The notes under the pieces: model-generated
What the model saw: only the letters and a program-made list of their open reading frames with translations
Told to the model about the DNA's origin: nothing
Database searches by the model: none
Source: an uncultured Rickettsiales bacterium
Lineage (GTDB): Bacteria > Pseudomonadota > Alphaproteobacteria > Rickettsiales > UBA1997
DNA length: 61,466 nt
NCBI GenBank assembly: GCA_905478245.1
Contig: CAJQHT010000009.1
Coordinates: 1-61,466 of the forward strand
Direction of reading: 5' to 3'
Program-made: the position numbers and the translations under genes
Shown: piece after piece, positions 1,744 through 41,065 of the stretch
Position numbering within the stretch: the stretch's first letter is position 1
Layout of the letters: every line of letters starts with the position of its first letter

Positions 1744-1770
1744 AAAACTGTATCATTTTGATACAGTTTT
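1744..1770. promoter_or_regulatory. Palindromic site AAAAC-TGTATCA-TTT-TGATACA-GTTTT
   Basis: Perfect 12-bp arms; the core recurs at 4063, 25443-25501 and 40077-40156. Confidence 0.7.
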
Positions 1771-4062: not shown

Positions 4063-4079
4063 TGTGTCAAAATAATACA
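4063..4079. promoter_or_regulatory. Degenerate copy of the TGTATCA-N3-TGATACA palindrome
   Basis: TGTGTCA-AAA-TAATACA (15/17 including the spacer), with palindromic ATA/TAT flanks. Confidence 0.55.
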
Positions 4080-14404: not shown

Positions 14405-15604
14405 ATGTATAAAAGAGAAATCACCAAACAAATTATAAAAAAACTAGAAACAAACCCTGCTATAGCTATTCTTGGTCCACGCCAAATAGGAAAAACTACA
14501 CTTGCTTTAGAAATAGGCAAAAAGAGAGATTTTATTTATCTTGACCTTGAAAATCCAGAAGATTTTCAAAAACTTAGAGATCCCAAACGTTATCTTGATC
14601 TACATTCTGATAAATTAGTTATTATTGATGAAATTCAACGATATCCAAATTTATTTATGTCTTTACGTGGCATTATTGATGCAAGACGTCGTGAAGGTAA
14701 AGGAAATGGACGTTTTCTTGTATTAGGTTCTGCTTCTAACGATCTTTTAAAACAAAGCTCAGAAAGCCTTGCAGGACGCATAAGTTATTTAGAACTTTCA
14801 GGGCTGAATCCTTTTGAAATTGAATCATCACATGGTAAATATTTCAATCAACTTTGGATTCGCGGAGGATTTCCAAATAGCTATTCTGCATCAAGCGATA
14901 TTGACAGTAATGAATGGCGTAGAAATTTCATTAAAACATATCTAGAGCGTGACATTCCTCAACTTGGCTCTCACATACCAGCCACAACATTAATGCGTTT
15001 TTGGACAATGCTTGCTCATTCACAAGGAGAGTTACTAAATGCATCAAAACTTGCTAGTTCACTTGGTGTAAAAAGTGTAACAATTAATCGTTATCTTGAT
15101 TTAATGGTAGATCTTTTGCTTGTTCGTAGACTTGAGCCATGGCATGGTAATGTTAAAAAACGGTTAGTAAAATCTCCAAGAGTTTATGTAAGGGATAGCG
15201 GCATAGTGCATACTTTATTACAAATATCTAATTATGAACATTTATTAGGCAATCCAGTTTTAGGAAAAAGTTGGGAAGGTTTTGTCATTGAAAACATCAT
15301 TTCCACCCTACCTTCAAATATACATTCATTTTTTTATAGAACATCTGCTGGAGCAGAAATAGATTTATTGCTAGAATTAGGTCTTAATAATTATTGGGCA
15401 ATAGAAATTAAATCCAGCAAGACACCAAATATAAAAAAAGGATTTCACATAGCCTGTGAAGATTTAAATGTTAAACGTAAATTTATTTTATATGCCGGAG
15501 AAGACAGTTTTTTTCTTGGAAATAAAACGCTTATGATTTCCCTTCCTCTTTTTCTGCAAGAAATAAAGAAAGAACTTTGGCATAATAGCATTTCCCATTT
15601 TTAA
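14405..15604 (+). CDS. AAA+ ATPase (AAA_14 / DUF4143 type) with C-terminal PD-(D/E)xK-like domain
   Basis: GPRQIGKT, IIDEIQ, LGS, ESLAGR, GGFP, KSPRVY, EIDLL..AIEIK. Confidence 0.88.
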   Translation: MYKREITKQIIKKLETNPAIAILGPRQIGKTTLALEIGKKRDFIYLDLENPEDFQKLRDPKRYLDLHSDKLVIIDEIQRYPNLFMSLRGIIDARRREGKGNGRFLVLGSASNDLLKQSSESLAGRISYLELSGLNPFEIESSHGKYFNQLWIRGGFPNSYSASSDIDSNEWRRNFIKTYLERDIPQLGSHIPATTLMRFWTMLAHSQGELLNASKLASSLGVKSVTINRYLDLMVDLLLVRRLEPWHGNVKKRLVKSPRVYVRDSGIVHTLLQISNYEHLLGNPVLGKSWEGFVIENIISTLPSNIHSFFYRTSAGAEIDLLLELGLNNYWAIEIKSSKTPNIKKGFHIACEDLNVKRKFILYAGEDSFFLGNKTLMISLPLFLQEIKKELWHNSISHF

Positions 15605-17883: not shown

Positions 17884-17942
17884 GGGACCGTCGCAAATCA
17901 AATCCAAATAATTTCTTAATTTTGTAATATTTTTACTTGCAT

Positions 17943-17987
17943 AAAACAGCTATTAAGCTAGTATTTATCTAGCTTAATAGCTGTTTT
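17943..17987. repeat. Perfect 19-bp-arm hairpin in the IS leader
   Basis: AAAACAGCTATTAAGCTAG-TATTTAT-CTAGCTTAATAGCTGTTTT. Confidence 0.85.
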
Positions 17988-18022
17988 TTACATATTTTTT
18001 ATTAAATAATTGGGAATTTAAT

Positions 18023-19050
18023 ATGTCCCGTCAAATAGAAATGATTTGTTTAGAAGAATTAGTTCCAGATAGTCACATTTACAGAAAATTCAAAGAATTA
18101 TGGAATTTTTCTGAGATGGAAAAAGAAATGAGTAAGATGGAAGCTAATTCAGATCATAAAGGCTATGGGGCTTTTAGATTATTTCTATGTCTCCTAATTC
18201 AATTTGCAGAAGATCTGAGTGATAGGGAATTAGAGAGATATTTAGAAGATACTAATTCAGCTAAATGGTTTTGTAACTTTGGATTAGTTGAAAAGACCCC
18301 AGACCACAGCGTCTTTGGCAATGCCAGAAAAAGAATTGGAACCAAAAGATTATCCACAATATTCAATATTCTAAAAGACCAATTAAAAGAGAAAGGCTAT
18401 ATGAATGAGGTATTCACATTTATAGATGCCTCTCACCTAATATCCAAAGCAACATTATGGAAAGAAAGGGATGAAGCTATCAAAAAGAAATACGAAAAAC
18501 TAAATAATGAAATCCTTCCCAAATTTACTAAAGACAAACAAGCTGACTTTACTTATAAAAATTCTGTTTATTTTATTGAATAAGTTGCAAACGCTTCGCT
18601 TATTGTGGCTGTAAAGGAGGTAATAAATTCTGGTATGGCTTTAAGAAGCACGCTTCTGTTGATATGCAATCTGGCATGATCAATAAAGTAGCTATCACCA
18701 AAGCTAGCACAATAGATTCAAAAGGAATGAAACACGTTACCCCAGAAAGTGGAGCTGTTTACGGCGATAAAGGATATTGTGACAAGAATGCTAAAAAAGC
18801 AGTAGCTAAAAGAAATCTTCATCTAGCTGCTATGAAAAAGAATAATATGATAGGTAAGAATAAAGATCTTGATAAATGGTACTGCAAACTTAGATCTCCT
18901 TATGAGAGAATATTTTCTAAAACAAATCACAGAGTTAGATATCAAGGAATTCAAAAGAATCAATTTACTGCTTTTATGGAGAGTATAGCTCATAACTTTA
19001 AGAGAATGATTATTTTAGATGAGCTTTATCCACCACCAAATACAGCTTAA
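18023..19050 (+). pseudogene. IS5-family DDE transposase split into two frames
   Basis: LSDRELE, TPDHS, FIDASH in ORF 1; GCKGGNKFWYGFKKH, YGDKGY, RSPYERIF in the second frame; an extra segment of about 56 bp at 18551-18606. Confidence 0.88.
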
Positions 19051-21280: not shown

Positions 21281-22522
21281 ATGGCCGGAAAAATTGAAAA
21301 TGACTTAGAAAAAAGCTTAGTTGAAACATCTAAGACTGCAAAATGGATCAACGATAGACTACCAATAATTTCTTTTATTGAAAATACCTTCTTAAAACAC
21401 CCATATCCAAAAAATTTAAGTTATTTTTGGAATTTTGGCTCAATACTCGGCATAGCATTACTTGTACAAATAATCACTGGAATTTTACTTTCCATGCATT
21501 ATATTCCAAACACTGAAATGGCCTTTGAATCGGTGGAACACATCATGAGAGACGTTAGATATGGCTGGCTTTTACGCTATGCTCACGCTGTTGGTGCTTC
21601 CATGTTTTTTGTGGCAGTTTATATTCATATGGGTCGCGGATTATTCTTTGGTTCCTATAAAGCTCCTCGAGAACTAATCTGGTGGTTTGGTATTATTATC
21701 TTCTTACTTATGATGGCAACTGCATTTATGGGCTATGTTCTACCTTGGGGTCAAATGAGCTTTTGGGGCGCTACGGTCATAACCAATCTATTCTCTGCTA
21801 TTCCTGTAATTGGAGAATCAATAGTAACATGGCTTTGGGGTGGTTATTCGGTTGATAATCCAACTTTAAACCGCTTCTTTGCTTTACATTACTTACTACC
21901 ATTCATAATTGTAGCAATGGTATTACTTCACCTTATAACATTACATAAATCAGGATCAGCTAATCCCAGCGGCGTTGAGATTAAAACCAAAAAAGACATT
22001 ATACCTTTTCATCCATATTTTACCATTAAAGACATCTTAGGATTTTGTGTATTTTTTATAATATTTGGCTATTTTCTATTCTTTTATCCAAACGCATTAG
22101 GACATCCAGATAATTACATACCAGCTAATCCAATGGTTACTCCAGCTCACATTGTTCCAGAATGGTATTTTTTACCTTTTTATGCAATTTTAAGAGCAAT
22201 ACCAGATAAATTAGGTGGTGTTTTAATGATGTTTGGCTCAATTATGATATTATTTGTTTTACCTTGGCTGGATACCAGTAAAGTAAAAAGTGGAATCTAC
22301 AGACCGGTATTTAAATGGGTTTATGCTGTTTTTGTTGTTAATTTTATTATTTTAGGGTGGTTAGGTCAAGCTCCAGCCGAGGGGGTCTACATTATAGCAT
22401 CCAGAATAGCAACATTTTATTACTTTGCTTACTTCTTGCTAATTTTACCTTGGCTTGGAAAAAATGAAAAAACTTTACCCCTGCCAGAATCAATTGATGC
22501 GGATTATAAAAAACATCATTAA
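21281..22522 (+). CDS. petB: Cytochrome b
   Basis: [22 protein letters not shown]. Confidence 0.98.
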
Positions 22523-22537
22523 ATTGAATTAATATTT

Positions 22538-23305
22538 ATGAAAAATTTACTAAAAATAATATTTATATTCTTAGCTTTTAATGCAAATGTTTTAGCATCT
22601 GGCGGTGAGAATTCAGCCCTAAAACCAAAACAATTAAAATGGGAATTTGATGGTTTCTTTGGTCGCTTCGACAAATCCTCAATTCAAAGAGGTTTTCAAG
22701 TTTATAAAGAAGTTTGCTCATCTTGCCATGGAATGAAATTATTCTCCTATAGAAATCTTGAAGCAGCTGGTTTCGATAAAGAAGAGGTAAAACAAATAGC
22801 TTCTGAATATCTTATTATGGATGGCCCTAATGATGAAGGTGAAATGTTTGAAAGATTAGCTTTACCATCAGATAAATTTGTTGGACCATTCGAAAATGAC
22901 AACGCTGCCAGAGTAGCAAATGGAGGGGCGCTTCCTCCCGATTTATCCCTTATAACTAAATCCAGACCAGACGGACCAAATTATATATATTCACTAATCA
23001 GAGGCTATAAAAAAGCTCCGGAACATTTTGAACTAACAGAAGGAAAATATTATAATCCTTATTTTGAGGGCAGACAAATTGGCATGATGCCACCATTAGA
23101 AGATGATGAAATAGTTGAATATCAAGACGGAACTTACGCTACAAAAGAGCAAATGACAATAGATATTGTTAATTTCCTGCAATTCGTAGCCGAAGGAGAA
23201 ATGGAGGCCAGAAAAAAAATGGGTATAAGATCCACTTTATTCTTAATTATATTAACCATATTATTTGCAATTGCCAAAAGAAGAGTTTGGAGTAAAGTAA
23301 AATAA
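22538..23305 (+). CDS. petC: Cytochrome c1
   Basis: Signal peptide, CSSCH, PPDLS, C-terminal TM helix. Confidence 0.96.
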   Translation: MKNLLKIIFIFLAFNANVLASGGENSALKPKQLKWEFDGFFGRFDKSSIQRGFQVYKEVCSSCHGMKLFSYRNLEAAGFDKEEVKQIASEYLIMDGPNDEGEMFERLALPSDKFVGPFENDNAARVANGGALPPDLSLITKSRPDGPNYIYSLIRGYKKAPEHFELTEGKYYNPYFEGRQIGMMPPLEDDEIVEYQDGTYATKEQMTIDIVNFLQFVAEGEMEARKKMGIRSTLFLIILTILFAIAKRRVWSKVK

Positions 23306-23321
23306 CCAATAATTAAAAATT

Positions 23322-23861
23322 ATGTCATTTAAATTTGAAAAAGAAAATTTAAAAAAAGTAGCAGATATTCTAAAAAAATATCCAGAAAATAGAAAAAAAT
23401 CTGCTGTAATGCCTTTGCTCGACTTAGCTCAAAGACAAAATGCCAATCATATCACGAAGGAAATAATCTCTTATATCGCTTCAATGCTTGATATGGCAGA
23501 AATCAGAGTCTATGAGGTGGCAACATTTTACTCAATGTATAATTTAAAACCAGTTGGTAAATATTTATTACAAATCTGCGGCACAACACCTTGCATGCTA
23601 AGAGGAAGCGCAGATTTAATCAAATTATGCAAAGAAAAATTTAATATTGGTCTAAATGAAACTTCAAATGATAAATATTTTACCTTAAAAGAAGTTGAAT
23701 GTTTAGGAGCCTGTGTTAATGCTCCCATGGTTCAAATTAATGATGATTATTATGAAGATTTAAATGTCGAAAACTTTGAAGCAATATTAAATAATTTAAA
23801 AAGCGGGAAAGCTGTTAAAATAGGATCCCAAACTAATAGACAATGCTCAAAATCAATTTAA
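23322..23861 (+). CDS. nuoE: NADH-quinone oxidoreductase subunit E
   Basis: EVATFY, CGTTPC, ECLGACVNAP [2Fe-2S] ligands. Confidence 0.95.
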   Translation: MSFKFEKENLKKVADILKKYPENRKKSAVMPLLDLAQRQNANHITKEIISYIASMLDMAEIRVYEVATFYSMYNLKPVGKYLLQICGTTPCMLRGSADLIKLCKEKFNIGLNETSNDKYFTLKEVECLGACVNAPMVQINDDYYEDLNVENFEAILNNLKSGKAVKIGSQTNRQCSKSI

Positions 23862-23876
23862 ACAATTTAACTAATT

Positions 23877-25415
23877 ATGAAATCTAATAATTTAAGCAAA
23901 TTAGCAACAAAAAGAGTTGAAGCCACAATGGGTGGTGGTAAAGATCGAATCAAAATTCAACATTCAAAAGGAAAGCTAACCGCTAGAGAAAGAATAGAAG
24001 TTCTCCTAGATCCAAATTCATTTGAAGAATATGGCCTGTATGTTGAACATAGATGTAATGATTTTAATATGGAGAAAAAGAAACATGCTGGCGACGGTGT
24101 TGTTACTGGTCAAGGAACAATAAATGGTCGATTAGTTTTTGTTTATAGTCAAGATTTTACAGTTATGGGAGGATCTCTTGGTGAGGCTCATGCAAAAAAA
24201 ATCTGTCGCATCATGGATAAAGCTGTCACAGTAGGAGCTCCAATAATTGGTATTAATGATTCCGGAGGAGCTAGAATACAAGAAGGTGTCGATTCCCTTG
24301 GCGGCTTTGGTGATATTTTTCAAAAAAATATTGATGCCAGCGGAGTTGTGCCTCAAATCTCATTAATCATGGGGCCATGTGCTGGTGGCTCGGTATACTC
24401 ACCAGCTTTGACTGATTTTGTTATAATGGTCGAAAAATCATCTTACATGTTTGTAACTGGTCCTGATGTAGTAAAAACAGTTACCCATGAAGACATAACT
24501 CAGGAAGATTTAGGTGGAGCCAAGGTTCACACTGAGAAAAGCGGAGTAGCTCATTTGGCTTTTAAAAGCGACATCGAAGCTTTACTTCAAGCAAGAAGAT
24601 TAATTAATTTCCTACCTTTATCCAACAAAGATAAAGTTCCAGAAGTTCCAAATTCAGATACAGCAGATCGCCTAGATGTTTCTCTTGATACATTAATTCC
24701 TGATAATTCAAACCAACCTTATGATATGGGTGAATTAATCGAAAAAATTGTTGATGAAGGAGACTTTTTTGAAATACAGCCAAATTACGCCAATAATATT
24801 ATTATCGGCTTTGGCAGATTAGAGGGTAGTACCGTAGGTATTATAGCGAATCAACCAATGAATCTAGCGGGATGCCTCAATATTGAGGCCAGCGAAAAAG
24901 CAGCGCGCTTTATCAGATTTTGTGATTGCTTTAATATTCCAATAGTTACTTTTGTTGACGTTCCAGGTTTCTTGCCAGGTAAAGATCAAGAGCATAACGG
25001 CGTCATTCGTCACGGTGCCAAACTTTTATATGCTTATGGCGAAGCTACTGTGCCAAAGATTACAGTAATTGCTCGAAAAGCCTATGGTGGTGCTTATATT
25101 GTTATGAATTCCAAACATTTAAAGGGTGATATAAATTACGCTTGGGCCGATGCTCAAATTGCAGTAATGGGGCCAGAAGGGGCTGTAGAGATTATCTCTA
25201 GAAAAGAAATTAAAGAAAATCCAAATTCAAAAGATCAAATAGTTAATGATTATAGAGAGAAATTTGCCTCACCTTTTGTAGCAGCTTCTCGTGGATTTTT
25301 AGATGAAGTCATAAGACCTAGAAATACTAGAAAAAGAATCTGTAAATCTTTGCAAATTCTAAAAAATAAAGAAGTAACAAAGCCTTGGAAAAAACACGAT
25401 AACCTACCTTTGTAA
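23877..25415 (+). CDS. pccB: Propionyl-/acyl-CoA carboxylase beta subunit
   Basis: [40 protein letters not shown]. Confidence 0.93.
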
Positions 25416-25442
25416 AATAATAAAGAATAGATTGCATCATAC

Positions 25443-25501
25443 TGTATCATTTTGATACAGTATGTATTAATTTAATACATATTATGTATCATTTTACTAC
25501 A
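25443..25501. repeat. Triplet of TGTATCA-N3-TGATACA palindromes
   Basis: TGTATCATTTTGATACA (25443), TGTATTAATTTAATACA (25463), TGTATCATTTTACTACA (25485); between convergent pccB and ompR. Confidence 0.8.
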
Positions 25502-25517
25502 TAACTTAACGCTGAAT

Positions 25518-26186
25518 CTATTTCTGCAAAATATAACCATGACCACGCACAGTTTGTAAAAAATTTGGCTGTTTTGGGTTATCTTCTATTTTACGGCGCA
25601 AGCGCGTAATTTGCACATCTATACTTCTTTGATCAACATTGTTACAAGATTTAGATAATTCATCTCGTGAAATTTTCTTACCCAAATTCTGACAAAGAAT
25701 TTTTAAAATATTCGCCTCGCTTTCAGTAATATGAATATAATCATCATTCTTTTTTAACCTCACATCCTCTGAATTAAAAATAAAATTACCAAATTTATAA
25801 TTTGCAGATGTAAGATTATAAGATGTTTTTCTATTTAGAATATTTTTTATTCTTAGTAAAAGCTCTTTAGGCTCAAATGGTTTTGCCAAATAATCATCTG
25901 CTCCAGCTTCCAAGCCTTCAATTCTATCTTCAATCTCAGCCATGGCAGTTAACATTAAAATTGGTATTTTATTATTATTTTTTCTTAGATCCTTCGCAAA
26001 TTCAATACCGCTTAAATGAGGCATCATAACATCCAGCACTAAAATATCAAAATCCTTCTTATTAATAATTTCTTTTGCCTCTAGGGCATTTTTTGCTAGA
26101 TTAACAATAAAATTATTATCTTCTAGAAACTTACCTAAAAGGCTTCTTAGCCTAGTATCATCGTCTATAACAAGAATTTTATTCAT
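25518..26186 (-). CDS. ompR: OmpR-family response regulator
   Basis: IDDD, LDVMMP, GADDYLAKPF, RSIDVQITRLRRKIE, TVRGHGY. Confidence 0.9.
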   Translation of the reverse strand: MNKILVIDDDTRLRSLLGKFLEDNNFIVNLAKNALEAKEIINKKDFDILVLDVMMPHLSGIEFAKDLRKNNNKIPILMLTAMAEIEDRIEGLEAGADDYLAKPFEPKELLLRIKNILNRKTSYNLTSANYKFGNFIFNSEDVRLKKNDDYIHITESEANILKILCQNLGKKISRDELSKSCNNVDQRSIDVQITRLRRKIEDNPKQPNFLQTVRGHGYILQK

Positions 26187-26358
26187 GATTTATAAAAATA
26201 TTTATTTTAAATTAATAATTACTATCTTATAATGTAATTAAATTCACCTTTAAAATGATTAATATTTTACCATTTAAAAATCATTCACGAAGTAAATCCT
26301 GATATTATTATAAAAATACCAGGAATAAATGTAAACTAATATATCTTAATTAATTAAA

Positions 26359-27243
26359 ATGCTCAATAAAATAATAGATGGAAAATCTATAGCCGCTGAT
26401 TTACAAAAAAACATTGCAATTGAAGTAGAAAAAATTAAAAAAGATTATGCAATTATACCATCTTTAGCAGTAATCTTAATAGGAAACGATCCTGCAAGTA
26501 AGGTTTACGTTGGCAGTAAGGAAAAAGCGGCTCACAAAATTGGCATGAATTCCATTACCTATAAATTATCTTCTGATATTACACAAGAAGAGCTAATTAA
26601 CAAAATCGAAGAATTAAATAATAATAATAAAATACATGGTATTTTAGTACAATTACCCCTTCCTAAACATATTAATACAAACACCATTATTCACACCATT
26701 GATCCTAAAAAAGATGTAGATGGATTTCACGTAATTAATGTAGGAAAATTATCAATTGGTCAAATCTCTGGTCAAGACAAAGCCTTAATACCATGCACAC
26801 CCCAAGGATGTCTTCATTTAATGAAATCGGCACTTGGCAACGATTTAAAAGGCCTGGATGCCTTAGTAATAGGTACCTCTAACATTGTTGGCAGGCCATT
26901 AGCTCGCTTACTAATGCTTGAAAAATGCACCGTAACCATAGCCAATTCAAGAACAAAAAATCTCAAAGAAAAATGCTTAAATAGCGACATAATAATAAGC
27001 GCGACAGGAGTATCCAACCTCATCACTTCAGATATGGTAAATGAAAATACAACTATTATTGATGTTGGAATTAATCGCATAACCTTAGAAGACGGTACCA
27101 GTAAATTAGTTGGAGACGTTAATTTCAGTGAATTAATAAAAAAGGTAAAATTTATAACCCCGGTTCCAGGAGGTGTTGGCCCTATGACTATTTCTTATTT
27201 ACTAAAAAATACCTTAGAATCTTGTAAAAAATTTATAACTTAA
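26359..27243 (+). CDS. folD: Methylenetetrahydrofolate dehydrogenase/cyclohydrolase
   Basis: YVGSK, GILVQLPLP, KDVDG, PCTP, TPVPGGVGPMT. Confidence 0.97.
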   Translation: MLNKIIDGKSIAADLQKNIAIEVEKIKKDYAIIPSLAVILIGNDPASKVYVGSKEKAAHKIGMNSITYKLSSDITQEELINKIEELNNNNKIHGILVQLPLPKHINTNTIIHTIDPKKDVDGFHVINVGKLSIGQISGQDKALIPCTPQGCLHLMKSALGNDLKGLDALVIGTSNIVGRPLARLLMLEKCTVTIANSRTKNLKEKCLNSDIIISATGVSNLITSDMVNENTTIIDVGINRITLEDGTSKLVGDVNFSELIKKVKFITPVPGGVGPMTISYLLKNTLESCKKFIT

Positions 27244-27249
27244 TATAGA

Positions 27250-27963
27250 ATGAAAAAAAATAAAAATAACGAAAACGAAACAGATTTCACCTCTAAAGAA
27301 ATTGAAGAGAGAATGATAATGCGCCAAATGAAAGAGGACATCAGAAAAGAGAAAATACGCGCTATTTTAGCAAAATATAGAAAAAAAATTATTGCTATTT
27401 CTTCTATAGCCATTTTAATTATTTCAACTTTTATATTTTATGAAATTTATGAACATAATAAAAGCGTCAAATATTCAAAGCTTCTACATCAAGTTCTTTT
27501 TCTAGAAAATACAGGGCAAAATGAGGATATTACACAAACATTACATAAAATATTCGAAGATCGCTCCGCTCCAAATTCTATAAAATCTCTTGCCCTAATG
27601 AAATACGGATCCAAATTAGTTGCAGAAAATAAAATAGAAGAAGCTGTTGAAACCTATATAAAAGCTAGTCAAATTAAGAATTCAGATCATTATTTTACAG
27701 ATCTAGCTGGATTATTAGCAATAAAATCCATGATTGATAGTGGTAATGTAGAATTTTATGATAAAATAAATGACCTAATATCAAAATTTGAAAAAGAAAC
27801 CATGGCATTAAAATCTTTTATCTTAGAGCAAAAAGCTATTTTCAACTGGATTCAAGGAGATAAAAAAGCAGCTTACGATATATTTTACAATTTATCGCTT
27901 GATGTTGAAGCTCCTAAGGCTTTAAAAAATAGAGCTCTAGAATTTAGCAAAATTGTAAAATAA
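27250..27963 (+). CDS. YfgM-like single-pass TPR-type membrane protein
   Basis: N-terminal TM plus helical periplasmic domain; conserved position upstream of bamB. Confidence 0.7.
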   Translation: MKKNKNNENETDFTSKEIEERMIMRQMKEDIRKEKIRAILAKYRKKIIAISSIAILIISTFIFYEIYEHNKSVKYSKLLHQVLFLENTGQNEDITQTLHKIFEDRSAPNSIKSLALMKYGSKLVAENKIEEAVETYIKASQIKNSDHYFTDLAGLLAIKSMIDSGNVEFYDKINDLISKFEKETMALKSFILEQKAIFNWIQGDKKAAYDIFYNLSLDVEAPKALKNRALEFSKIVK

Positions 27964-27997
27964 TATTAAATTCTTTACCCATGCTATTTTCCATCTA

Positions 27998-29293
27998 ATG
28001 AAAATGATTCATAAAATTATAAATTTTATTAAGATTGTACTATTTTTTACAATTTTAATCTCTTGCTCCAAAAAAGAACAAATTCAAGATGCTATTTCTA
28101 TTTTTCCAGATCTTAACATCATTCAACTAGATGATTCCCTAAAAGAAAAATCAATAAAACTACCCCAGCAGCAAGAAAATGACTCTTGGACAGGCAGAAG
28201 TAATATTGCTAATCTTCTAAATATTGAGAATTTCTCTTTTTCTGATAAAATTAATGATTCAGATTCATCTATTTATAGTTATAAATTTCTAGGCAAAAAC
28301 CATAGAGCGTCACCACCAATTATTCATAAAAATACCGCCTATTTAATTGATCATAAAGGCAGAATTACTTCCTTTGATTTAAAAAATAACAAAAAAAATT
28401 GGCAAATAAAACCATTTAAAACAAAATTTAAAAATGGAAAGATATATCTAAATAATGGTAAATTATTTGCCACTTCCGGCTATAATTATTTAGCAGCTAT
28501 CGATATTGAAAAAGAATCTGTTTTATGGTCCAAAAAAATTAACTCTTTAATCATTTCTGCGCCCATTGCCAGTAAAGAACAGGTTCTAGCAATCACCTCT
28601 GACAATAAAACATATGCTTTTAATGCAAATAATGGTAATATTAACTGGATTCATGAAGCGATCGATAAAAATACCGCAATCCTAGGAGCCTCTGATCCTG
28701 TTTTTTACAAAAATCATGTTTTTAGCTCTTATTCTTCTGGGGAAATATATGTTTTGAATCAAAAAAATGGAGAAATTGGCTGGTTTTATAATCTAAACAT
28801 CAATAAAGCAATTAATTCTGATTTTATTTTAAATGACATTGACAATGTCCCAATTATTAAAGACGATATTATTTACGCCGTTGGTAATGGCGGTCTAATG
28901 ATGGCCATTAAAATTAATAATGGCGCTGTTTTATGGAAAAGTAAAATAGCTTCAATTTCAGATTTCTGGATTGTAAATGATTTTATTTATTTAATTGATA
29001 GTGATAATAATTTATTATGTTTAGACAGAAAATTTGGCAAGGTTAAATGGCACGCTCAATTAGATAAGAATATTGATGATAAAATTACCTATCATGGTCT
29101 TATTATGGCTGGAGATAATTTAATTTTATCCAACTCAAATAAAGAAATACTATTAATCTCACCAAAAAACGGAGAAATTTTACAAAGAAAAAAATTCTGG
29201 AATAATTTTTATCACAGCCCAACTATTGCTAATAAGAAAATATATTTTAATATTTTGGGAAAATTTACCAATAAATTACTTATATTAGAATAA
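27998..29293 (+). CDS. bamB: BamB-like PQQ beta-propeller lipoprotein
   Basis: Lipobox LISC; repeated A...G...W propeller motifs. Confidence 0.75.
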   Translation: MKMIHKIINFIKIVLFFTILISCSKKEQIQDAISIFPDLNIIQLDDSLKEKSIKLPQQQENDSWTGRSNIANLLNIENFSFSDKINDSDSSIYSYKFLGKNHRASPPIIHKNTAYLIDHKGRITSFDLKNNKKNWQIKPFKTKFKNGKIYLNNGKLFATSGYNYLAAIDIEKESVLWSKKINSLIISAPIASKEQVLAITSDNKTYAFNANNGNINWIHEAIDKNTAILGASDPVFYKNHVFSSYSSGEIYVLNQKNGEIGWFYNLNINKAINSDFILNDIDNVPIIKDDIIYAVGNGGLMMAIKINNGAVLWKSKIASISDFWIVNDFIYLIDSDNNLLCLDRKFGKVKWHAQLDKNIDDKITYHGLIMAGDNLILSNSNKEILLISPKNGEILQRKKFWNNFYHSPTIANKKIYFNILGKFTNKLLILE

Positions 29294-29301
29294 TTCACAA
29301 A

Positions 29302-31899
29302 ATGATAAATTTACCAAAGAAATATAAACATTTCGATGCAGAAAAAAAATGGCAGAATTTTTGGTCTGAAAATAAAATCTATAAATGGGAGAAGGACCTA
29401 CCGCGTGACCAAACCTTTGTTATAGATACTCCTCCACCAACTGTTTCCGGTGTTTTACATATGGGTCATGTATTTTCCTATGTGCAAGCTGATTTTATTG
29501 CACGCTATCAAAGAATGAAGGGTAAAACAGTTTTTTACCCAATGGGATTTGATGATAATGGCCTTCCAACCGAAAGATTAGTGGAAAAGGTTAAAAAAAT
29601 TCGAGGTGTCGATATGGATCGAGCCGATTTTGTTAAAGAATGTCAAAGCGTAGTTGATGAAGCTGAAGAGCAATTTGAAGAATTATTTAACTCAGTAGCA
29701 TTATCAGTTGACTGGGATGAAAAATATCAAACCATTTCAGCACAATCACAAAAAATATCACAACTTTCTTTCATCGATCTATTCAATAAAGGTCTTGTTG
29801 AAAGAAAAATGGAGCCGGTTTTATGGGACATCGTTGACAGAACAGCTCTTTCACAAGCTGATCTAGTTGATAAAGAAAAACCTAGTGCAATGCATTACAT
29901 AAAATTCTCTATCTTAGATAATGATCAAGAAATTACCATTGCAACCACCCGCCCCGAGCTTCTATCTGCATGTGGCGCCGTTATTGTTAATCCAGAAGAT
30001 GACAGATATAAAGATTTAATCGGCAAAAAAGCCATAACTCCATTATTTGGCGTCAAAGTTGATATTATTGCCGATGAAATGGCACAAATCGATAAAGGAA
30101 CAGGAGCGGTAATGTGCTGTACTTTTGGTGACGAAACCGATATCTTATGGTGGAAAAAATATAATTTACCTTTAAGGTTAATTTTATGTAAAGATGGAAA
30201 AATAACCGATCCAGATTTAACAAATTTAGATATAATTGAATTTGAATCTGGCCAATTAGATAAAAATAATGTTATCAATTTAGCAGATACTAAGAAATAT
30301 TTTACTCAAATAGCTGGTTTAAGCTATAAAGAAGCTAGAAAAATTACAATTTCTTTAATAGAGCAAAAAAATCTATTAGTAAAATCAGAGGATATTACCC
30401 ATAATACCAAATGCGCCGAAAGATCAGGAGTGCCAATTGAAATCTTAGTTGTACCACAATGGTTTATCAAGATTCTTGACATTAAAGAGCAATTAAAAGA
30501 AAAGGCCGCTGAATGTAATTGGTATCCTCATTTTATGAAGGTCAGAATTGATCAATGGATTGATGGAATTTCTTGGGATTGGTGTATTTCAAGACAACGC
30601 TTTTTTGGCGTACCCTTCCCTATTTGGTATTCTAAGAAAAAAGGAGAAGAAGGCAAAATATTAGTTGCAAACACTGATCAATTGCCATGCGATCCATTAA
30701 AAGCTCTACCTAAGGGCTATAAGGCCGAAGAGATAGTAGCAGAAACTGATATTATGGATACCTGGGCTACATCTTCTGTTTCTCCGCAATTATCGTCTCA
30801 TGGCATTACAGAAAATCTAACTAGTAATGCTGATATAGAGCGTCATAAAAAACTATTTCCCGCTGATCTACGCCCCCAAGCTCATGAAATCATTAGAAGC
30901 TGGGCCTTTTATACAATAGTTAAAGCCTATCTTCATGAAGAAACTATTCCATGGCTCAATTTAATGATATCAGGTTGGTGCTTAGCATCTGATAAAACCA
31001 AAATGAGCAAATCAAAAGGCAATGTTATAACTCCAAATGCTTTAATAGAAGAAAAAGGCAGTGATGTTGTGCGCTACTGGGCCTCAACCTCACATTTAGG
31101 ATGTGATACCGCTTATAGTGAAGATGTCTTAAAAATAGGTGGCAAATTATTAAATAAATTATTCAATGCTGCTAAATTTACTTGTACTAATTTTGACTCT
31201 TTACAATACAAGCCAAAAACAGTAATTTTAGACATTAAAGAAAATCTAATTTTTAAAAAATCAGATTTATGGATTTTAAGCAAATTACATAAAATAATTG
31301 CAAAATCTGAAGCAGAATTTGAAAAATTCGAATATGCTAAAGCCAGAGAAGCAGTAGAAGATTTCTTCTGGAATGATTTTTGTGATAACTACCTAGAAAT
31401 AGCTAAAGTTAGAGCTTATGGAATTAAGGCACAAAAATATGAAAATATTGATTTAACTAATGAAGAAAAAACTAACATCATTAAAGCACAACAAAGCGCT
31501 TTAATAACTCTATATCACTGCCTAGAAACACTTTTAAGACTATTAGCGCCATTCATTCCTCATCTATGTGAAGAATTATTTCAGGCAATTTTTAATCAAG
31601 ATAATACCTCTTTATCAATCAATAGCAGGGGTTCTTGGCCAAATTTAGAAGATCATTATAAAAATGATGAATTAGCAAATAATACTAAATCCATGCTGGA
31701 AGTAATTAGTCATATCAGAAAATTTAAATCAGATAATAATATTTCACTTCGAACTCAATTGAAATCCTTTCAGATTCACAGTAATTCTAATTTTGATGGA
31801 TTTCTAGAAGATTTGCGTGATGTTACTAACGCTCAAGAAATTATTGTCAATAAAACCAAAAATAATCAAGTAGAAATTAACTCTATTACATTATTATAA
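29302..31899 (+). CDS. valS: Valine--tRNA ligase, archaeal-like type seen in Rickettsiales
   Basis: DTPPPTVSG-LHMGH, WCISRQR, DTWATS, RPQAHEIIRSW, KMSKS. Confidence 0.96.
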   Translation: MINLPKKYKHFDAEKKWQNFWSENKIYKWEKDLPRDQTFVIDTPPPTVSGVLHMGHVFSYVQADFIARYQRMKGKTVFYPMGFDDNGLPTERLVEKVKKIRGVDMDRADFVKECQSVVDEAEEQFEELFNSVALSVDWDEKYQTISAQSQKISQLSFIDLFNKGLVERKMEPVLWDIVDRTALSQADLVDKEKPSAMHYIKFSILDNDQEITIATTRPELLSACGAVIVNPEDDRYKDLIGKKAITPLFGVKVDIIADEMAQIDKGTGAVMCCTFGDETDILWWKKYNLPLRLILCKDGKITDPDLTNLDIIEFESGQLDKNNVINLADTKKYFTQIAGLSYKEARKITISLIEQKNLLVKSEDITHNTKCAERSGVPIEILVVPQWFIKILDIKEQLKEKAAECNWYPHFMKVRIDQWIDGISWDWCISRQRFFGVPFPIWYSKKKGEEGKILVANTDQLPCDPLKALPKGYKAEEIVAETDIMDTWATSSVSPQLSSHGITENLTSNADIERHKKLFPADLRPQAHEIIRSWAFYTIVKAYLHEETIPWLNLMISGWCLASDKTKMSKSKGNVITPNALIEEKGSDVVRYWASTSHLGCDTAYSEDVLKIGGKLLNKLFNAAKFTCTNFDSLQYKPKTVILDIKENLIFKKSDLWILSKLHKIIAKSEAEFEKFEYAKAREAVEDFFWNDFCDNYLEIAKVRAYGIKAQKYENIDLTNEEKTNIIKAQQSALITLYHCLETLLRLLAPFIPHLCEELFQAIFNQDNTSLSINSRGSWPNLEDHYKNDELANNTKSMLEVISHIRKFKSDNNISLRTQLKSFQIHSNSNFDGFLEDLRDVTNAQEIIVNKTKNNQVEINSITLL

Positions 31900-31921
31900 T
31901 TGCTAAATATAAATCTTATTT

Positions 31922-32977
31922 ATGAGGCCATCAAAAATTCTTAGATCACTTTCTTCTGCTACCGCTCTTAGGCAAAATATTCACAACTTCATAATAGCCA
32001 GATCACTTTCCTCAACCACTTCTAACGATAAGGATATTCACACTTTACAAATACCCAAAATCGTATCTGAAATTATCCATGACAGAGCTAATAATCTCTT
32101 AAGAGTTGCCAATGATTCCTTGGTACAGATGAAAAATCCAAATCACGAAACTTTAAATCGTATTGCCAAAAAAGAACTATCTGACATTTTAAAAGCAAGC
32201 CCAGAACTTCATGAAGAGTTTCAATATATAAAAGAGAACAGATTTAAAATCATTGAGATTAACGGATGGAATCTTCCTGAGTTCAAACTAGAAAATTTAC
32301 CTAAAAATGCAAAAGATTTAGAAAATCCAGCTTTCATCAAAAATATAATACCCGCTCAAATCTTATTACATATGTTTAATCAAGGTCTTGGAATAGAATT
32401 GGCAGAAAAGGGAGCTTTTAATAGTTTTGTATGCCCACTTGATTCCAGGTCACTAACTCAAGGAAATGGAGAGCTGGATTGGCATAGAGACGGATGGCAG
32501 ATGAGCGAGCGTTATAAAAATTTTGAACAATATATCAGCTTAATAGGAGTCTTGGGTCAAGAAGGAGTCCTAACACAAGTCATTACCTCTGGCGATATTA
32601 AGAAGCATTTCGAAGAAATAGAACGAAAAGATATTTTACAAGCATTATCGCAACCATATATTGTGTCCCGAGAAGATTTTCTATATGTTAAGAAGCCTGT
32701 TCTCTCAAAAGACGAGGGTATTAATTTTTCCAGCAGGGCTGCAAAATCATTTATTTGCGAAAGTGACTTTCAAATGGAGGCATTAGAACATCTTGTACAT
32801 TATCTAGAAAATGCAGAACCCACATATAGTACAGAACTAGAAAATGGAAAAATGATTGTAATTGACAATAGTAAAGCCATACACTGCAGAAAATTTGAAG
32901 ACCCCAATACAAAGATCAGTGCCAGAATGGCAATAAGGGGATTTGGGGATCAGAGCGAAGACAAAGCCATTAGATAG
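31922..32977 (+). CDS. TauD/clavaminate-synthase-like Fe(II)/2-oxoglutarate dioxygenase with a presequence-like N-terminal extension
   Basis: LDWHRDG (HxD) and IVIDNSKAIHCR...R (DN..HxR and distal Arg); first 35 aa are Arg/Ser/Leu-rich with no acidic residue. Confidence 0.7.
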   Translation: MRPSKILRSLSSATALRQNIHNFIIARSLSSTTSNDKDIHTLQIPKIVSEIIHDRANNLLRVANDSLVQMKNPNHETLNRIAKKELSDILKASPELHEEFQYIKENRFKIIEINGWNLPEFKLENLPKNAKDLENPAFIKNIIPAQILLHMFNQGLGIELAEKGAFNSFVCPLDSRSLTQGNGELDWHRDGWQMSERYKNFEQYISLIGVLGQEGVLTQVITSGDIKKHFEEIERKDILQALSQPYIVSREDFLYVKKPVLSKDEGINFSSRAAKSFICESDFQMEALEHLVHYLENAEPTYSTELENGKMIVIDNSKAIHCRKFEDPNTKISARMAIRGFGDQSEDKAIR

Positions 32978-32987
32978 TATCAAAATC

Positions 32988-34226
32988 CTAAATTTCAAAT
33001 CTAATCATTTCATCATAGCTTGGCCTTCTTCTAATAATCTCAAAATTCTTACCATCAATCATAATTTCTGGTATTAACGGGCGAGAATTATATTCATTAG
33101 ACATTGAGGCACCATAGGCACCACAAGAGTAAAGAGCAAGAAGATCTCCTTGTTTTGGATCGATCAATAAACGATTCTTGGCCAATATATCGGTAGTTTC
33201 GCAAACCGGACCTGCAATGTCAAATCTTTTAGCAGCTCCATTCTTTTTGCTAATCTGAACTAACTTATGATAAGAATCATAAAGGCCAGGGCGCATTAAA
33301 TCGTTCATTGCCCCATCAATTATTAAAAAATCTTTAAAATCCGTATGTTTATGATAAATAATTTGCGTAATTAAAGCGGCACTATTACCAATCAAAGCCC
33401 TACCAGGAGCAATGGTCACGGAAACACTCAACTCTAAAGCAATATCTTTAATTATCTTCGCATATTCTTCTATAATTATTGGATTCTCGTCATTATAAAT
33501 GATTCCAACGCCACCACCAAAATCAAGACTTTTAATATCAAAGCCATTTTGGCGTAGAGTTATACATAATTCTTTAATTTTTGCAAAAGCATTTTTAAAT
33601 GGCTCTAAAGATGTGATTTGTGAACCAATATGAGTAGCAATTCCATGAATTTTAATATTAGATAATTTACTAGCTTTTTCATATAAATCTTCAGCCAAGT
33701 GAATGTCAACACCAAATTTATCACCCTTTCTGCCTGTTGAAATTTTATCATGAGTTTTAGCATCAACATCAGGATTAACTCTTAAAGAAAATTTAGCAAT
33801 CTTGTCAATTTTACGCGCAACCTCATTAAGTAAATATAATTCAGGCTCAGATTCCACGCTAAACTCCTCAACTCCTTCATTTAAAGCATATTCAATCTCA
33901 TCAGCTTTTTTTCCCACTCCAGCAAAAACAATATTTTTTGGCTCAATTCCAGCCTTAATTGCACGATAAATTTCACCTTTTGAAACTACGTCAATGCCTG
34001 CACCCATCGCTGCAAATATTTTAACAATATTTATATTAGGATTAGCTTTAATAGCATAGCAAATCTTATGATCAATTTCCTTAAAAGCATTATAAAAAAC
34101 TTGATAATTTTCAATAATATTTCTTCTACTGTAGCAATAAAATGGAGTACCTACTTCTTTAGCAATATCAGATATTTTTAGCCCTTCTACTGATAGCTGA
34201 TCATCTATAAAATTAAAATACTTCAT
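32988..34226 (-). CDS. lysA: Diaminopimelate decarboxylase
   Basis: YAIKAN, LRVNP...KFG, HIGSQ, GPVCETTD, GAYG, YNSRP. Confidence 0.96.
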   Translation of the reverse strand: MKYFNFIDDQLSVEGLKISDIAKEVGTPFYCYSRRNIIENYQVFYNAFKEIDHKICYAIKANPNINIVKIFAAMGAGIDVVSKGEIYRAIKAGIEPKNIVFAGVGKKADEIEYALNEGVEEFSVESEPELYLLNEVARKIDKIAKFSLRVNPDVDAKTHDKISTGRKGDKFGVDIHLAEDLYEKASKLSNIKIHGIATHIGSQITSLEPFKNAFAKIKELCITLRQNGFDIKSLDFGGGVGIIYNDENPIIIEEYAKIIKDIALELSVSVTIAPGRALIGNSAALITQIIYHKHTDFKDFLIIDGAMNDLMRPGLYDSYHKLVQISKKNGAAKRFDIAGPVCETTDILAKNRLLIDPKQGDLLALYSCGAYGASMSNEYNSRPLIPEIMIDGKNFEIIRRRPSYDEMIRFEI

Positions 34227-34341
34227 TTACTTTATAATATTTATTAGTTAGTATTAGGCCACTCATTAAAGATGGACTTTGGTATAGCGCCAGAATCAAT
34301 ATTTAAAATGATAATTAATATAATAATAATAATCAATCAAA

Positions 34342-36036: not shown

Positions 36037-36039
36037 ATT

Positions 36040-37858: not shown

Positions 37859-37871
37859 AAAATAAAATAAT

Positions 37872-38207: not shown

Positions 38208-38212
38208 ACCTA

Positions 38213-40045
38213 ATGCCACCCTTAGACAAAGTATTAATATCCGTTCAGGAAGCCCAGATAACTTTTGGTAAAACTACTCTTTTCGAAAATTTAAATTTCA
38301 ATATTCATAGTAATAGCAAAATATGTCTCATTGGTAAAAATGGCGCTGGGAAAAGCACCTTAATGAATATAATTTCAAATAAATACGAATTAGATAGCGG
38401 TAAAAGAATTGAAGTGCCAAATCTTACCATTGGCTATTTAGAGCAAGAAATTCAATTTGATAATAATCAGAAATTATTTGATTATTTATTTCTAGGATTA
38501 GAAAAAGAAGAGCAAATAGATGAAAATTCCTATATTATTGAAGCTATGGCTCATAATTTAAAGATAGATATTAATAATATTATGGGAAATTTATCAGGAG
38601 GACAATTAAGAAGAGCGGCGCTGGCAAAATCCCTAATTCAAGATCCAGATCTATTATTACTAGACGAACCAACAAATCATCTTGATTTTGAATCAGTAAA
38701 GTGGCTTGAAAATTACTTAAATTCCTATAATGGTACTTTTCTTTGCATTAGTCATGATCGCACATTCTTAAAAAATATTTCTAATAAAGTATTCTGGCTT
38801 GATAGGGGAAATGTTAGAGTTTGCCCAAAAGGATATAGTTATTTTGAAGAATGGTCAAACATGCTATTAGAGCAAGAAAGTAGAGAATTACATAATCGTA
38901 AAAGTATTTTATCTCTAGAGGAAGAATGGGCAAATCGAGGAGTTAAGGCTAGAAGAAAAAGAAACGTTAGAAGAATAGATGAAATGAGAACAGAAAAAAG
39001 CAAATTAGAATCTGATCTAAGTTCATTTAGAAAAGCTACCCGAAAGCTAGAAATAAAAGAAATTAAGGTTAGTGATTCTTCAAAAATTATTGCCACTTTC
39101 ATCAAGGCTAATAAAGAATTTCAAAATGAACAGAAAAAAGAGATTATTTTAAATAATTTTAATCTAAAAATTATGAAAGGTGATAAAATTGGAATTCTTG
39201 GCAATAATGGCTCAGGAAAAACAACATTTCTAAAAATGTTAATTGGCGAATCAGAGCCAGATTCAGGTAAAATAAAATTAGCCAAAAATATTGATATTGC
39301 TTATTTCGATCAAAAAAGATCAAATTTAAAAAGTGACGAAAGCCTAAAAAAGAATTTATGCCCAAATGGCGGAGAATATATCGAGGTAATGGGGAAAACT
39401 AGGCATGTTTGCGGCTATTTAAAAGATTTTATGTTTGATCCAAAAGCTGCGTCAGAACAAGTTAGTACTCTTTCTGGTGGGCAAAAAAATCGCTTAATGC
39501 TAGCCAAAGTTTTAGCTAATCCTAAAAATTGCCTGATACTTGATGAACCAACCAATGATCTAGATATGGATACACTGGATATGCTAGAAGAGATATTATC
39601 AAATTATAAAGGTACATTATTGGTAGTTAGTCATGATCGTGATTTTTTAGATAAAACTATTAATAAAATCCTAGCCTTTAATGGCAATGGCGATATTAAA
39701 TATTATGGCGGAAATTACAGTGATTATGAACAATATATTAAAGAAAAAGAGTTAGAATCCAATAGCCAATCAGAAAATATTAAAAACAACATAAATAATA
39801 ACAAAAAAACAAAAACCGCAACAAAGAAACTAACCTATAAATTACAATATGAGCTCGACAATATACCTAAAGAAATTGATAAATTAAATCAAGAATTGGA
39901 GCAAATAAATCAGAAATTTCTTGATCCTGAATTTTTTGCAGATAATAATTCTGAATCACTATTAATGAAATCAAAAAATATAAGTCAAAAAATTGAAGAT
40001 CTGGAAAATAGATGGCTTGAATTAGAAGAAATGAAAGAGCAATAG
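38213..40045 (+). CDS. uup: ABC-F family ATPase, Uup-like
   Basis: Two ABC domains (GKNGAGKS/LSGG/DEPTNHLD; GNNGSGKT/LSGG/DEPTNDLD) and the C-terminal KKLTYK..EL coiled coil. Confidence 0.85.
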   Translation: MPPLDKVLISVQEAQITFGKTTLFENLNFNIHSNSKICLIGKNGAGKSTLMNIISNKYELDSGKRIEVPNLTIGYLEQEIQFDNNQKLFDYLFLGLEKEEQIDENSYIIEAMAHNLKIDINNIMGNLSGGQLRRAALAKSLIQDPDLLLLDEPTNHLDFESVKWLENYLNSYNGTFLCISHDRTFLKNISNKVFWLDRGNVRVCPKGYSYFEEWSNMLLEQESRELHNRKSILSLEEEWANRGVKARRKRNVRRIDEMRTEKSKLESDLSSFRKATRKLEIKEIKVSDSSKIIATFIKANKEFQNEQKKEIILNNFNLKIMKGDKIGILGNNGSGKTTFLKMLIGESEPDSGKIKLAKNIDIAYFDQKRSNLKSDESLKKNLCPNGGEYIEVMGKTRHVCGYLKDFMFDPKAASEQVSTLSGGQKNRLMLAKVLANPKNCLILDEPTNDLDMDTLDMLEEILSNYKGTLLVVSHDRDFLDKTINKILAFNGNGDIKYYGGNYSDYEQYIKEKELESNSQSENIKNNINNNKKTKTATKKLTYKLQYELDNIPKEIDKLNQELEQINQKFLDPEFFADNNSESLLMKSKNISQKIEDLENRWLELEEMKEQ

Positions 40046-40076
40046 CTCTTAACACTCAGCCTCATCTTTAAAAATA

Positions 40077-40156
40077 TGTATCAAAATAAGACATTATGTA
40101 TTATTTTGATACATAATACTATATTGAGACAGAACAATATGTATCATTTTGATACA
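40077..40156. repeat. Cluster of TGTATCA-N3-TGATACA palindromes
   Basis: TGTATCAAAATAAGACA (40077), TGTATTATTTTGATACA (40097), half-site TGAGACA (40125), perfect TGTATCATTTTGATACA (40140). Confidence 0.8.
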
Positions 40157-40187
40157 TATTAAAAAAATAAAGAACATAAACCTGTCG

Positions 40188-40221: not shown

Positions 40222-40228
40222 AATAAAT

Positions 40229-41065
40229 CTAAGCAATTTGCATGGCTGAAGCAGTTTGATCTTTTTGATCTTTTTGTTCCACCCTCTCAACTTCATTAAC
40301 CTTAGTTACTTTATTTGAAGGCTCAGCTGTACTAATATCCAATCCCGCTTCTGATGCTGTTCTTTTAGGGCGTGATTTTTGATCATTTTGTATGGCAGAC
40401 TCTGTCAATATAGGATCATTTGGTTCATTAGTCATTATAGGAAGGGGTAGTTTTTTTCCTTCTGCAATACTATTATTCCTACGACTAATACATTCGTTTA
40501 CCTCCTCAAAAGACTTATACTTACAATATTGTATAATAAATTCATATCCAAATTTATCTTGCTTATTAATACATAAATTTACCAATTCTTTTACTTTAGA
40601 ATTATTATCATGATTTAAAAAAACATTTAACTGCTTTGATTTATTAATCGATAAATAATCCATAATTATCCCCTTGACACCTGTAACAGAAATATGATCA
40701 AAAACTAATTCACTCACCTTACTTTCATAATTTTCAACTGAAATTTGAGAAGAATCTTCATAGCCTCCAGTAAGAAGTGGTAAATTATCAAAAATATGAT
40801 CTAACGCCCGCCATTTATAATAAAACTTTGTAGCAACCATTATATCTGTGAATTGCCTATAATTATTTCTTGTTACACCCCTACTCCTTAAAGCATTGCG
40901 AAAGTCATTAATATTTTCTTGCACAAATGGTAATGCAGCATTTTCTTCAGAAAATAAATAATTAAAATCATTATAAAAATCCTTAACTATACTATTTAAT
41001 TCTATTCTGAGGAATCGTATTTCTTGCGCTGGACTTAATGTTTTTGAATCTGTTGTTTTTGGCAT
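40229..41065 (-). CDS. Hypothetical protein with a charged, disordered C-terminus; candidate effector
   Basis: 278-aa ORF coupled to rlmH; no recognised family. Confidence 0.75.
   Translation of the reverse strand: MPKTTDSKTLSPAQEIRFLRIELNSIVKDFYNDFNYLFSEENAALPFVQENINDFRNALRSRGVTRNNYRQFTDIMVATKFYYKWRALDHIFDNLPLLTGGYEDSSQISVENYESKVSELVFDHISVTGVKGIIMDYLSINKSKQLNVFLNHDNNSKVKELVNLCINKQDKFGYEFIIQYCKYKSFEEVNECISRRNNSIAEGKKLPLPIMTNEPNDPILTESAIQNDQKSRPKRTASEAGLDISTAEPSNKVTKVNEVERVEQKDQKDQTASAMQIA

Follow-up and report, generated by a model that had tools for sequence, protein, structure and literature searches.

A 17-bp extragenic palindrome arrayed at gene ends in an uncultured Rickettsiales bacterium, probably the unit of a REP/BIME-like repeat family

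The DNA analysed here (the window, 61,466 nt) is contig C9 of an assembly of 1,407,879 bases from an uncultured Rickettsiales bacterium (67 contigs, 30.2% G+C, 98.66% complete), and the subject is a 17-bp palindrome, TGTATCA-N3-TGATACA, that stands in short arrays between its genes. The gene content is alphaproteobacterial (5-aminolevulinate synthase, the bc1 complex, an autotransporter weakly matching rickettsial OmpB), and DNA of the window occurs in marine metagenome runs. One array lies between a gene encoding a propionyl-CoA carboxylase beta-chain-like carboxyltransferase (pccB-like; 23877..25415, + strand; NCBIfam TIGR01117, E 3.6e-234, under the curated cut-off), whose nearest Atlas clusters carry the name propionyl-CoA carboxylase beta chain, and the convergent gene of an OmpR-family response regulator (25518..26186, - strand), for which the best NCBIfam match is OmpR PRK09468 (E 7.8e-63, 212 bits against a cut-off of 331). 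The full triplet element (25440..25503) holds a perfect unit at 25443-25459 and two further units at 25463-25479 and 25485-25501, joined by linkers of 3 bp and 5 bp; it starts 27 bp past the pccB-like stop codon and ends 16 bp short of the 3' end of the OmpR-family gene. Positions 25432-25501 have the sequence TTGCATCATAC-TGTATCATTTTGATACA-gta-TGTATTAATTTAATACA-tatta-TGTATCATTTTACTACA. The element matches a profile of such triplets with an nhmmer E value of 1.8e-12, and its predicted folds on the two strands reach -17.7 and -20.8 kcal/mol (z -4.0 and -5.0).

A second array (40077..40156) is made up of a doublet (40077-40093 and 40097-40113, 3-bp linker) and a perfect unit (40140-40156) 43 bp on, and the stretch between them is probably a decayed unit. 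Its nhmmer E values are 1.4e-6 and 0.013, and it folds at -26.4 and -27.2 kcal/mol (z -6.3 for either strand). Upstream lies the gene of an ABC-F ATPase (Uup/EttA-like; 38213..40045, + strand) and downstream the convergent orphan open reading frame (ORF) 40229..41065 (- strand), which belongs to no NCBIfam or Pfam family and has zero tblastn matches in the genome of another species of the genus (congener G001). Two solo units stand in co-directional gaps. The unit at 1749..1765 is perfect, is located 103 bp beyond the 3' end of ORF 1869-2903 (- strand), and forms with its flanks a hairpin of -12.4 kcal/mol (z -6.2), while the degenerate unit at 4063..4079, of the variant TGTGTCA...TAATACA, folds poorly (-2.4 kcal/mol, z -1.2) and has an nhmmer E value of 0.39. 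The orphan ORFs beside the solo units, like that beside the second array, are without a Pfam or NCBIfam family.

When the window was searched with the pattern TGTATCANNNTGATACA, allowing up to two mismatches, nine matches were obtained, against 0.35 expected from 100 dinucleotide shuffles (sd 0.61; nine were reached in 0 of the 100). An earlier note on this DNA had named eight palindrome sites, three of them perfect, and all eight were recovered at their coordinates: 1749, 25443 and 40140 are perfect, 40097 has one mismatch, and 4063, 25463, 25485 and 40077 have two each. The ninth match (position 870, two mismatches, within an ORF) is probably due to chance. The distances of 20 and 22 bp in the first array and 20 and 43 bp in the second, the shorter of them about two helical turns, were also measured as claimed, and both arrays do lie between convergent 3' ends. 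The same note had placed a promoter-like sequence at the first site, pointing antisense into the regulator gene; the letters TTGCAT-N18-TACAGT are indeed present at 25432-25461, while the promoter scan lists no sigma-70-like site in 25300-25650.

The excess over background holds for the whole genome, in which 100 sites were found at up to two mismatches (9 perfect, 34 with one mismatch and 57 with two); the reversed pattern gave 4. These sites fall into 57 clusters, namely 23 single sites, 8 doublets, 25 triplets and 1 quadruplet; about 4-8 of the sites are attributable to chance, and 9 of the clusters are genic by the ORF model. Real units number about 90, at about 50 places in the 1.41-Mb genome, in arrays of one to four units. 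The commonest form is a triplet of 59-60 bp in total, composed of a unit, a 3-bp linker, a unit, a 5-6-bp linker and a unit. Its units follow one another at 20 bp and then at 22-23 bp, whichever way the triplet faces, and where a distance of 41-43 bp is seen the middle unit of a triplet has decayed. Twenty-three triplets could be aligned along their full length of about 60 bp, and their linkers are conserved and their flanks are not. Their consensus reads TGTATCAwwwTgATACA-tta-TGTATtawwwTAATACA-TAtTa-TGTaTcAwwwTaATACA; that of the single unit is TGTATCAWWWTGATACA, flanked by A/T-rich sequence. With the profile of these 23 triplets, nhmmer reported 52 non-overlapping places at E<=10, of which 23 had E<1e-8 and 33 had E<1e-3, the latter giving 32 loci after merging. 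The recurrence of one unit, with its linkers and spacing, at these 32 loci indicates copying rather than independent origin.

With 75% as their median pairwise identity, the copies are old. The top pair is 95% identical; we take it to be the C29/C38 segmental duplicates, which have a flank in common. The arrays at C29 177-236, C38 990-1048 and C64 37751-37808 adjoin paralogous genes of a repetitive large-protein family (pieces 65-91% identical), and we read these three as segmental duplicates and not as separate insertions.

The placement of the arrays relative to genes was compared with a simple ORF model of 1250 ORFs that covers 89% of the genome and leaves 137 convergent, 678 co-directional and 157 divergent gaps. 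Seventeen of the 32 loci were convergent, 13 co-directional and none divergent, with the remaining 2 at contig edges; by count, the excess of convergent loci has P = 6e-8 and the lack of divergent ones P = 0.005, the latter becoming 9e-5 by length. From the array to the closest 3' end the median distance is 9.5 bp, 29 of the 30 placed loci being no more than 45 bp away, and at 7 loci an ORF overlaps the array by a few bases. Of the 13 arrays in co-directional gaps, 12 are closer to the upstream stop than to the next start. This placement is that reported for REP (repetitive extragenic palindromic) elements and the opposite of that of an operator set. About four-fifths of the flanking genes have a homologue in the congener, which equals the genome-wide share (1039 of 1250 ORFs, the other 211 being without one). 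No gene family travels with the arrays, the only links in an all-against-all blastp of the 66 flanking ORFs being those among ABC ATPases and within one repeat-protein family. The arrays were also considered as markers of synteny breaks and rejected as such: synteny with the congener holds at 11 of the 31 element loci, a share similar to that predicted by control gaps (25 of 100 convergent and 181 of 356 co-directional).

Sites with at most one mismatch number 43 here against 0 in the congener G001, whose whole genome (1,621,144 bases) represents the only other species of the genus examined, and each of 29 further relatives has 0-3. Two-mismatch sites in G001 number 7, as chance would give, and the best match there to the triplet profile has E 0.62. 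None of the six syntenic gaps that could be aligned in G001 holds a unit, and these gaps are too diverged for element borders to be defined. As to the pccB-ompR gap, whose comparison in relatives had been proposed as a way to detect an inserted module, the two orthologues sit on separate contigs in the congener and neither is followed by a unit. In a scan of one genome per species, which leaves out the window's own genome, 47 stretches fit the doublet pattern, none of them from a relative, and viral contigs yielded only 5 single doublets. As a separate observation, many Bacteroidales/Prevotella genomes and metagenome contigs (for example L154, L178 and L185) contain two tandem copies, separated by 6 bp, of another TGTAT...ATACA palindrome, which may be the operator of an unrelated regulator.

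The metagenome scan matched 100 stretches, of which 80 were examined and 5 were related. These five are contigs of one metagenome assembly that share 71-91% identity with this genome in their best matches, four of the contigs 82-91%; in the fifth, L210, the flank adjoining the array is 83% identical. From these identities we call the five contigs a closer sister lineage. All five carry arrays at orthologous gene ends. At locus C27 both lineages have three units in an identical 59-bp triplet, after which the sister lineage has a 10-bp insert; at C53 both have three units with 5 differences, all at unit positions 6, 12 or 14, and 190 bp of the right flank are identical. Unit number has changed at the other three of the five loci: C60 has two units here and three in the sister lineage, C35 has three here and four there with a different neighbour gene, and C48 has three units plus a MITE (miniature inverted-repeat transposable element) here against four units and no MITE there. 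The four-unit arrays of the sister lineage consist of two doublets with 3-bp linkers set 6 bp apart. Arrays at orthologous loci with differing unit numbers imply that the family predates the split of the two lineages and has been kept in place while changing by gain and loss of units. On L210 two genes converge across a four-unit array, whereas their counterparts here lie on separate contigs (C49 13603-14346 and C35 13696-14505) and only the C35 gene retains an array, a rearrangement beside an array.

Folding of the units gave 11-12-bp hairpins of about -12 kcal/mol (z -6.2) for perfect units with their flanks and z values of -4.0 to -6.3 for both window arrays on either strand. A doublet whose centres are opposite, such as 40077-40113, folds into a single long hairpin. 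Contigs assembled from two DNA runs span both window arrays unchanged.

Taken together, the 17-bp palindrome is probably the unit of a lineage-specific family of extragenic palindromes similar to REPs and bacterial interspersed mosaic elements (BIMEs), untagged and AT-rich. The arrays would be copies of one ancestral element whose means of mobilisation has since been lost, is missing from the assembly or belongs to no recognised type, and they would survive at gene 3' ends, where insertion is harmless. There they would be transcribed as 3' tails, in which perfect units fold as hairpins of 11-12 bp that may act, as with REPs, as weak terminators, as stabilisers of 3' ends or as insulators separating convergent genes. 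The likeness to REPs and BIMEs extends over several features, since both are short imperfect palindromes that are extragenic, species-specific and present in many copies, occur as singletons, dimers and clusters with set linkers, and differ between related genomes in presence and unit number. REPs are mostly located between convergent and unidirectional ORFs, according to PMC3733652, and the arrays here are likewise mostly between convergent or co-directional genes. Among the four alternatives of the earlier note, recombinase- or transposase-type sites of a mobile repeat come nearest to this reading, and no transposase match was found for the families searched.

The differences are that the unit here is 17 bp long (21-23 bp with flanks), AT-rich and nearly fully symmetric, that about 90 units are a modest copy number, and that REPs carry a GTAG tag and are associated with RAYTs (REP-associated tyrosine transposases), whereas neither the tag nor a RAYT gene was found in this assembly. 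A second class, the CGTC-tagged REPs, is common in alphaproteobacteria including Rickettsia and Wolbachia and is described without a dedicated transposase in Di Nocera et al. 2013 (PMC3733652); it resembles the present family in having alphaproteobacterial hosts, including small-genome intracellular ones, in lacking a dedicated transposase and in forming extragenic hairpin arrays, and differs in that the units here are without CGTC and unrelated in sequence. With neither the tag nor the transposase found, the family is outside the RAYT-linked GTAG class, and it is outside the CGTC class as well. In the literature on REPs, RAYTs, REPINs and Rickettsiales repeats, searched with terms other than the unit sequence, no paper was found on such a repeat in a Rickettsiales-like genome.

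Several results weigh against a REP/BIME-like origin. The search for a mobilising enzyme covered four Pfam families, and Y1_Tnp (PF01797), DEDD_Tnp_IS110, the TnpB zinc-ribbon domain and DDE_3 (IS630) each had 0 matches in the assembly; in a control search PF01797 matched in 6 of 14 reference genomes. A RAYT or similar gene can hide in repeats that were not assembled. In the 23-copy alignment the units have neither a GTAG or CGTC tag nor a regular U-tract after them, no empty site could be set against a filled one with clean borders, no target duplication was seen, and all five sister loci are filled. The age of the copies noted above belongs here too, and the two DNA runs contain no presence/absence variant at either window array and no sign of recent activity. 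Transcription is barely supported, by one 151-nt contig of depth 2 from an RNA library over 25427-25577 that may be DNA carry-over; the RNA runs are kept as contigs, from which strand, level and transcript ends are unreadable. Finally, the stems are without compensatory change, as Watson-Crick pairs fill 387 of 483 cells and shuffling of the right arms gives 395.6 (sd 4.2), and the frequent variant TGTGTCA...TAATACA has 2 of its 7 pairs non-Watson-Crick.

The conservation of the unit itself was followed in 69 aligned units. T1 G2 T3, T5, A7 and their mirrors T11, A13, A15 C16 A17 are nearly invariant, G2 and C16 being retained despite the 30% G+C of the genome, while positions 4, 6, 12 and 14 vary, by transitions in most units, and the same positions vary among copies and between orthologous copies. 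Pair 4-14 is G-T in 10 cases and A-C in 9, and G-C in only 1. An alternative register, in which a right arm pairs with the left arm of the next unit, showed no covariation in the two copies inspected by eye. Because TGT.T.A / T.A.ACA is invariant, transitions are free at 4, 6, 12 and 14 and compensatory change is absent, we infer a constraint imposed on the units by a sequence-specific protein, beyond what pairing alone could explain; the pattern of invariant positions fits recognition by a protein, and the cooperative binding of a dimer proposed earlier may take place. Of the 3-nt centres, 37 read AAA, 22 read TTT and 10 are mixed; whole-centre flips of this kind would be expected from hairpin-templated inversion.

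One candidate for such a protein is encoded beside the first array. By this account the arrays would be phased sites for the OmpR-family regulator (25518-26186), each unit having two GATACA-type half-sites on opposite strands and each triplet six, 9-11 bp apart on one helix face, and they would form a roadblock or an insulator where genes end, or else soak up the regulator as a sink; the account may be compatible with the repeat having spread as mobile DNA, and we consider it rather unlikely, though it is the chief competitor of the REP/BIME-like reading. The ompF and ompC genes have three adjoining 20-bp OmpR sites. The unit spacing of 20-23 bp, about two helical turns, with sites side by side, resembles that arrangement. 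The E. coli OmpR motif is KWWGTTACAT and its repeat GTTACATTTTGTTACAT, as given in PMC5438342; the unit read from its second base, GTATCATTTTGATACAT, agrees with this repeat at 14 of 17 positions, and its half-site agrees with KWWGTTACAT at 9 of 10. The recognition helix of the regulator, RSIDVQITRLRR, differs by one residue from RSIDVQISRLRR in the E. coli OmpR chain 1opc_A, and by blastp it is the sole winged-helix regulator of the OmpR family among the ORFs of the genome, with no paralogue of its C-terminal domain found. The pattern of change also favours it, because ACA, T11 and A13 are invariant and 12 and 14 variable, both among copies and between orthologous copies, and the stems change without compensation.

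The likeness remains a resemblance only, and other evidence runs counter to it. OmpR-family dimers bind direct repeats in promoters, whereas the good half-sites here are inverted, stand at gene ends and are not conserved with the regulator; on the same strand the other half-site reads TC where OmpR sites have a critical AC. None of the 30 placed loci is divergent and the arrays hug stop codons. The congener orthologue has the same helix and wing, yet the congener genome is without units. The E. coli consensus at up to three mismatches occurs at background level, with 20 matches here (10 of them in elements) against 18 in the congener, and the orientation of the loop is free to vary within arrays. 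Moreover, the unit was compared with many known motifs before one fitted, so that one near-match is likelier than the raw odds imply. The further proposal that the repeat seeded about 30 gene ends with six-half-site OmpR-type arrays, thereby parking the sole OmpR-family regulator behind housekeeping genes as a signal-dependent roadblock or insulator separating convergent transcription units, or as a buffer, in a small genome poor in canonical terminators, is a speculative one that we regard as improbable.

A triplet could instead be a very small MITE, with the outer units as terminal inverted repeats, the flanking TA dinucleotide as a target duplication and a DDE transposase acting in trans. 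TA is present on both sides of many copies, fragments of IS5/IS1182/IS982-like transposases exist in the genome, and the genome is rich in MITEs, with 254 terminus matches for one family of 170 bp, the subterminal region of which has the 10-mer CTGTATCATT in common with the unit. Terminal repeats, however, come trivially with ends that are palindromic units, and the flanking TA also extends the palindrome and is thus indistinguishable from a duplication; solo units, doublets and four-unit arrays are ill-suited to a transposon with fixed ends; no IS630-type DDE_3 gene was found in the assembly; and a search for a complete parent element with units at its ends gave none, the ORFs that separate the solo units 1749 and 4063 being without a Pfam family. 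This explanation is unlikely. That the units might be an internal part of the 170-bp MITE, a check already suggested in the earlier note, was rejected, as the 254 terminus matches place the units outside the MITE ends. MITEs have landed beside arrays at C48, C61, C67, C30 and C16. In the window the MITE of about 170 bp occurs at 7141, 15585, 19282, 34268 and 52736-52830, with ends reading ...AAAGATGGGAATTGGTAT, and its copies often abut one another or adjoin palindrome arrays. At 18023-19047 an IS5/IS1182/IS982-like transposase is split across two ORFs, probably as a decayed insertion sequence.

It is very unlikely that the arrays are purpose-built bidirectional terminators that evolved in place under selection for RNA hairpins. 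They do stand at gene ends and in convergent gaps, and the hairpins of perfect units are stable. In the terminator scan the unit at 25438-25464 is the sole terminator-like site of 25300-25650, and in 22000-41999, where few canonical terminators stand at gene ends, it tops the list of 16 such sites (9.3 expected), most of which are inside genes. In co-directional gaps 31 of 44 units have a centre that is U-rich when read along the upstream mRNA (background 0.475, p about 0.002, with units of one locus not independent of each other), and by locus the count is 14 against 5, a modest hint of a strand-linked effect. Against selection for terminators, the shared unit, linkers and spacing at 32 loci speak for copying, Watson-Crick pairing is under the shuffled expectation with no compensatory change, and G.U against A.C pairs in the mRNA sense number 30 and 19 (p 0.15). 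Triplets are oriented sense to the upstream gene in 5 cases and antisense in 4, and the congener lives without arrays. Intrinsic terminators have a G+C-rich stem, a U-tract and compensatory change, while the arrays have AT-rich stems, no regular U-tract and no compensatory change, though one unit passes a loose scan. No Rfam family matched at gathering score anywhere in the window. Just past the autotransporter gene 15647-17896 (- strand), at 17944-17990, stands a long hairpin of classic form, AAAACAGCTATTAAGCTAG...CTAGCTTAATAGCTGTTTT, that has both an A-run and a T-run; the genome therefore does possess canonical bidirectional terminators.

That the arrays are orphan operators of deleted toxin-antitoxin/XRE modules, or a regulon of such cassettes, both raised in the earlier note, is extremely unlikely, for although the units are palindromic, dimer-sized and phased and some neighbouring ORFs are orphan, the flanks are mostly core housekeeping genes of many unrelated families with no family in common, about four-fifths of them with a congener homologue, no helix-turn-helix or toxin-antitoxin gene stands beside the four window loci, no module is present in the six aligned congener gaps, none of the 30 placed loci lies in a divergent (promoter) gap, and the shared linkers mark the arrays as copies of one element.

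Other features of the window were noted in passing. A G+C-rich palindromic repeat at 4085-4190 has the stems GGCAGAC-N6-GTCTGCC (12 copies genome-wide) and GGCGAAC (8 copies), with a similar stretch on contig C14 near 4770 and no Rfam match at gathering score. The gene at 14405-15601 encodes an AAA_14/DUF4143 ATPase without a congener homologue, and a 1860-residue ORF without an NCBIfam family occupies 43445-49024.

Short palindromic repeats are known in many bacteria, and the family described here bears on how those without a RAYT spread and are constrained, in a host that is a reduced, AT-rich marine alphaproteobacterium, probably host-associated. It is small enough to be studied copy by copy, and its conservation pattern suggests protein recognition instead of stem pairing. 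The conservation of the unit together with the likeness to OmpR boxes leaves room for a more interesting role than that of a REP/BIME-like repeat. If the resemblance is real, mobile DNA would be carrying the binding sites of a two-component regulator to the ends of genes; otherwise the family would be an ordinary REP-like repeat, of use as a strain marker and as a caution against taking phased palindromes for operators.

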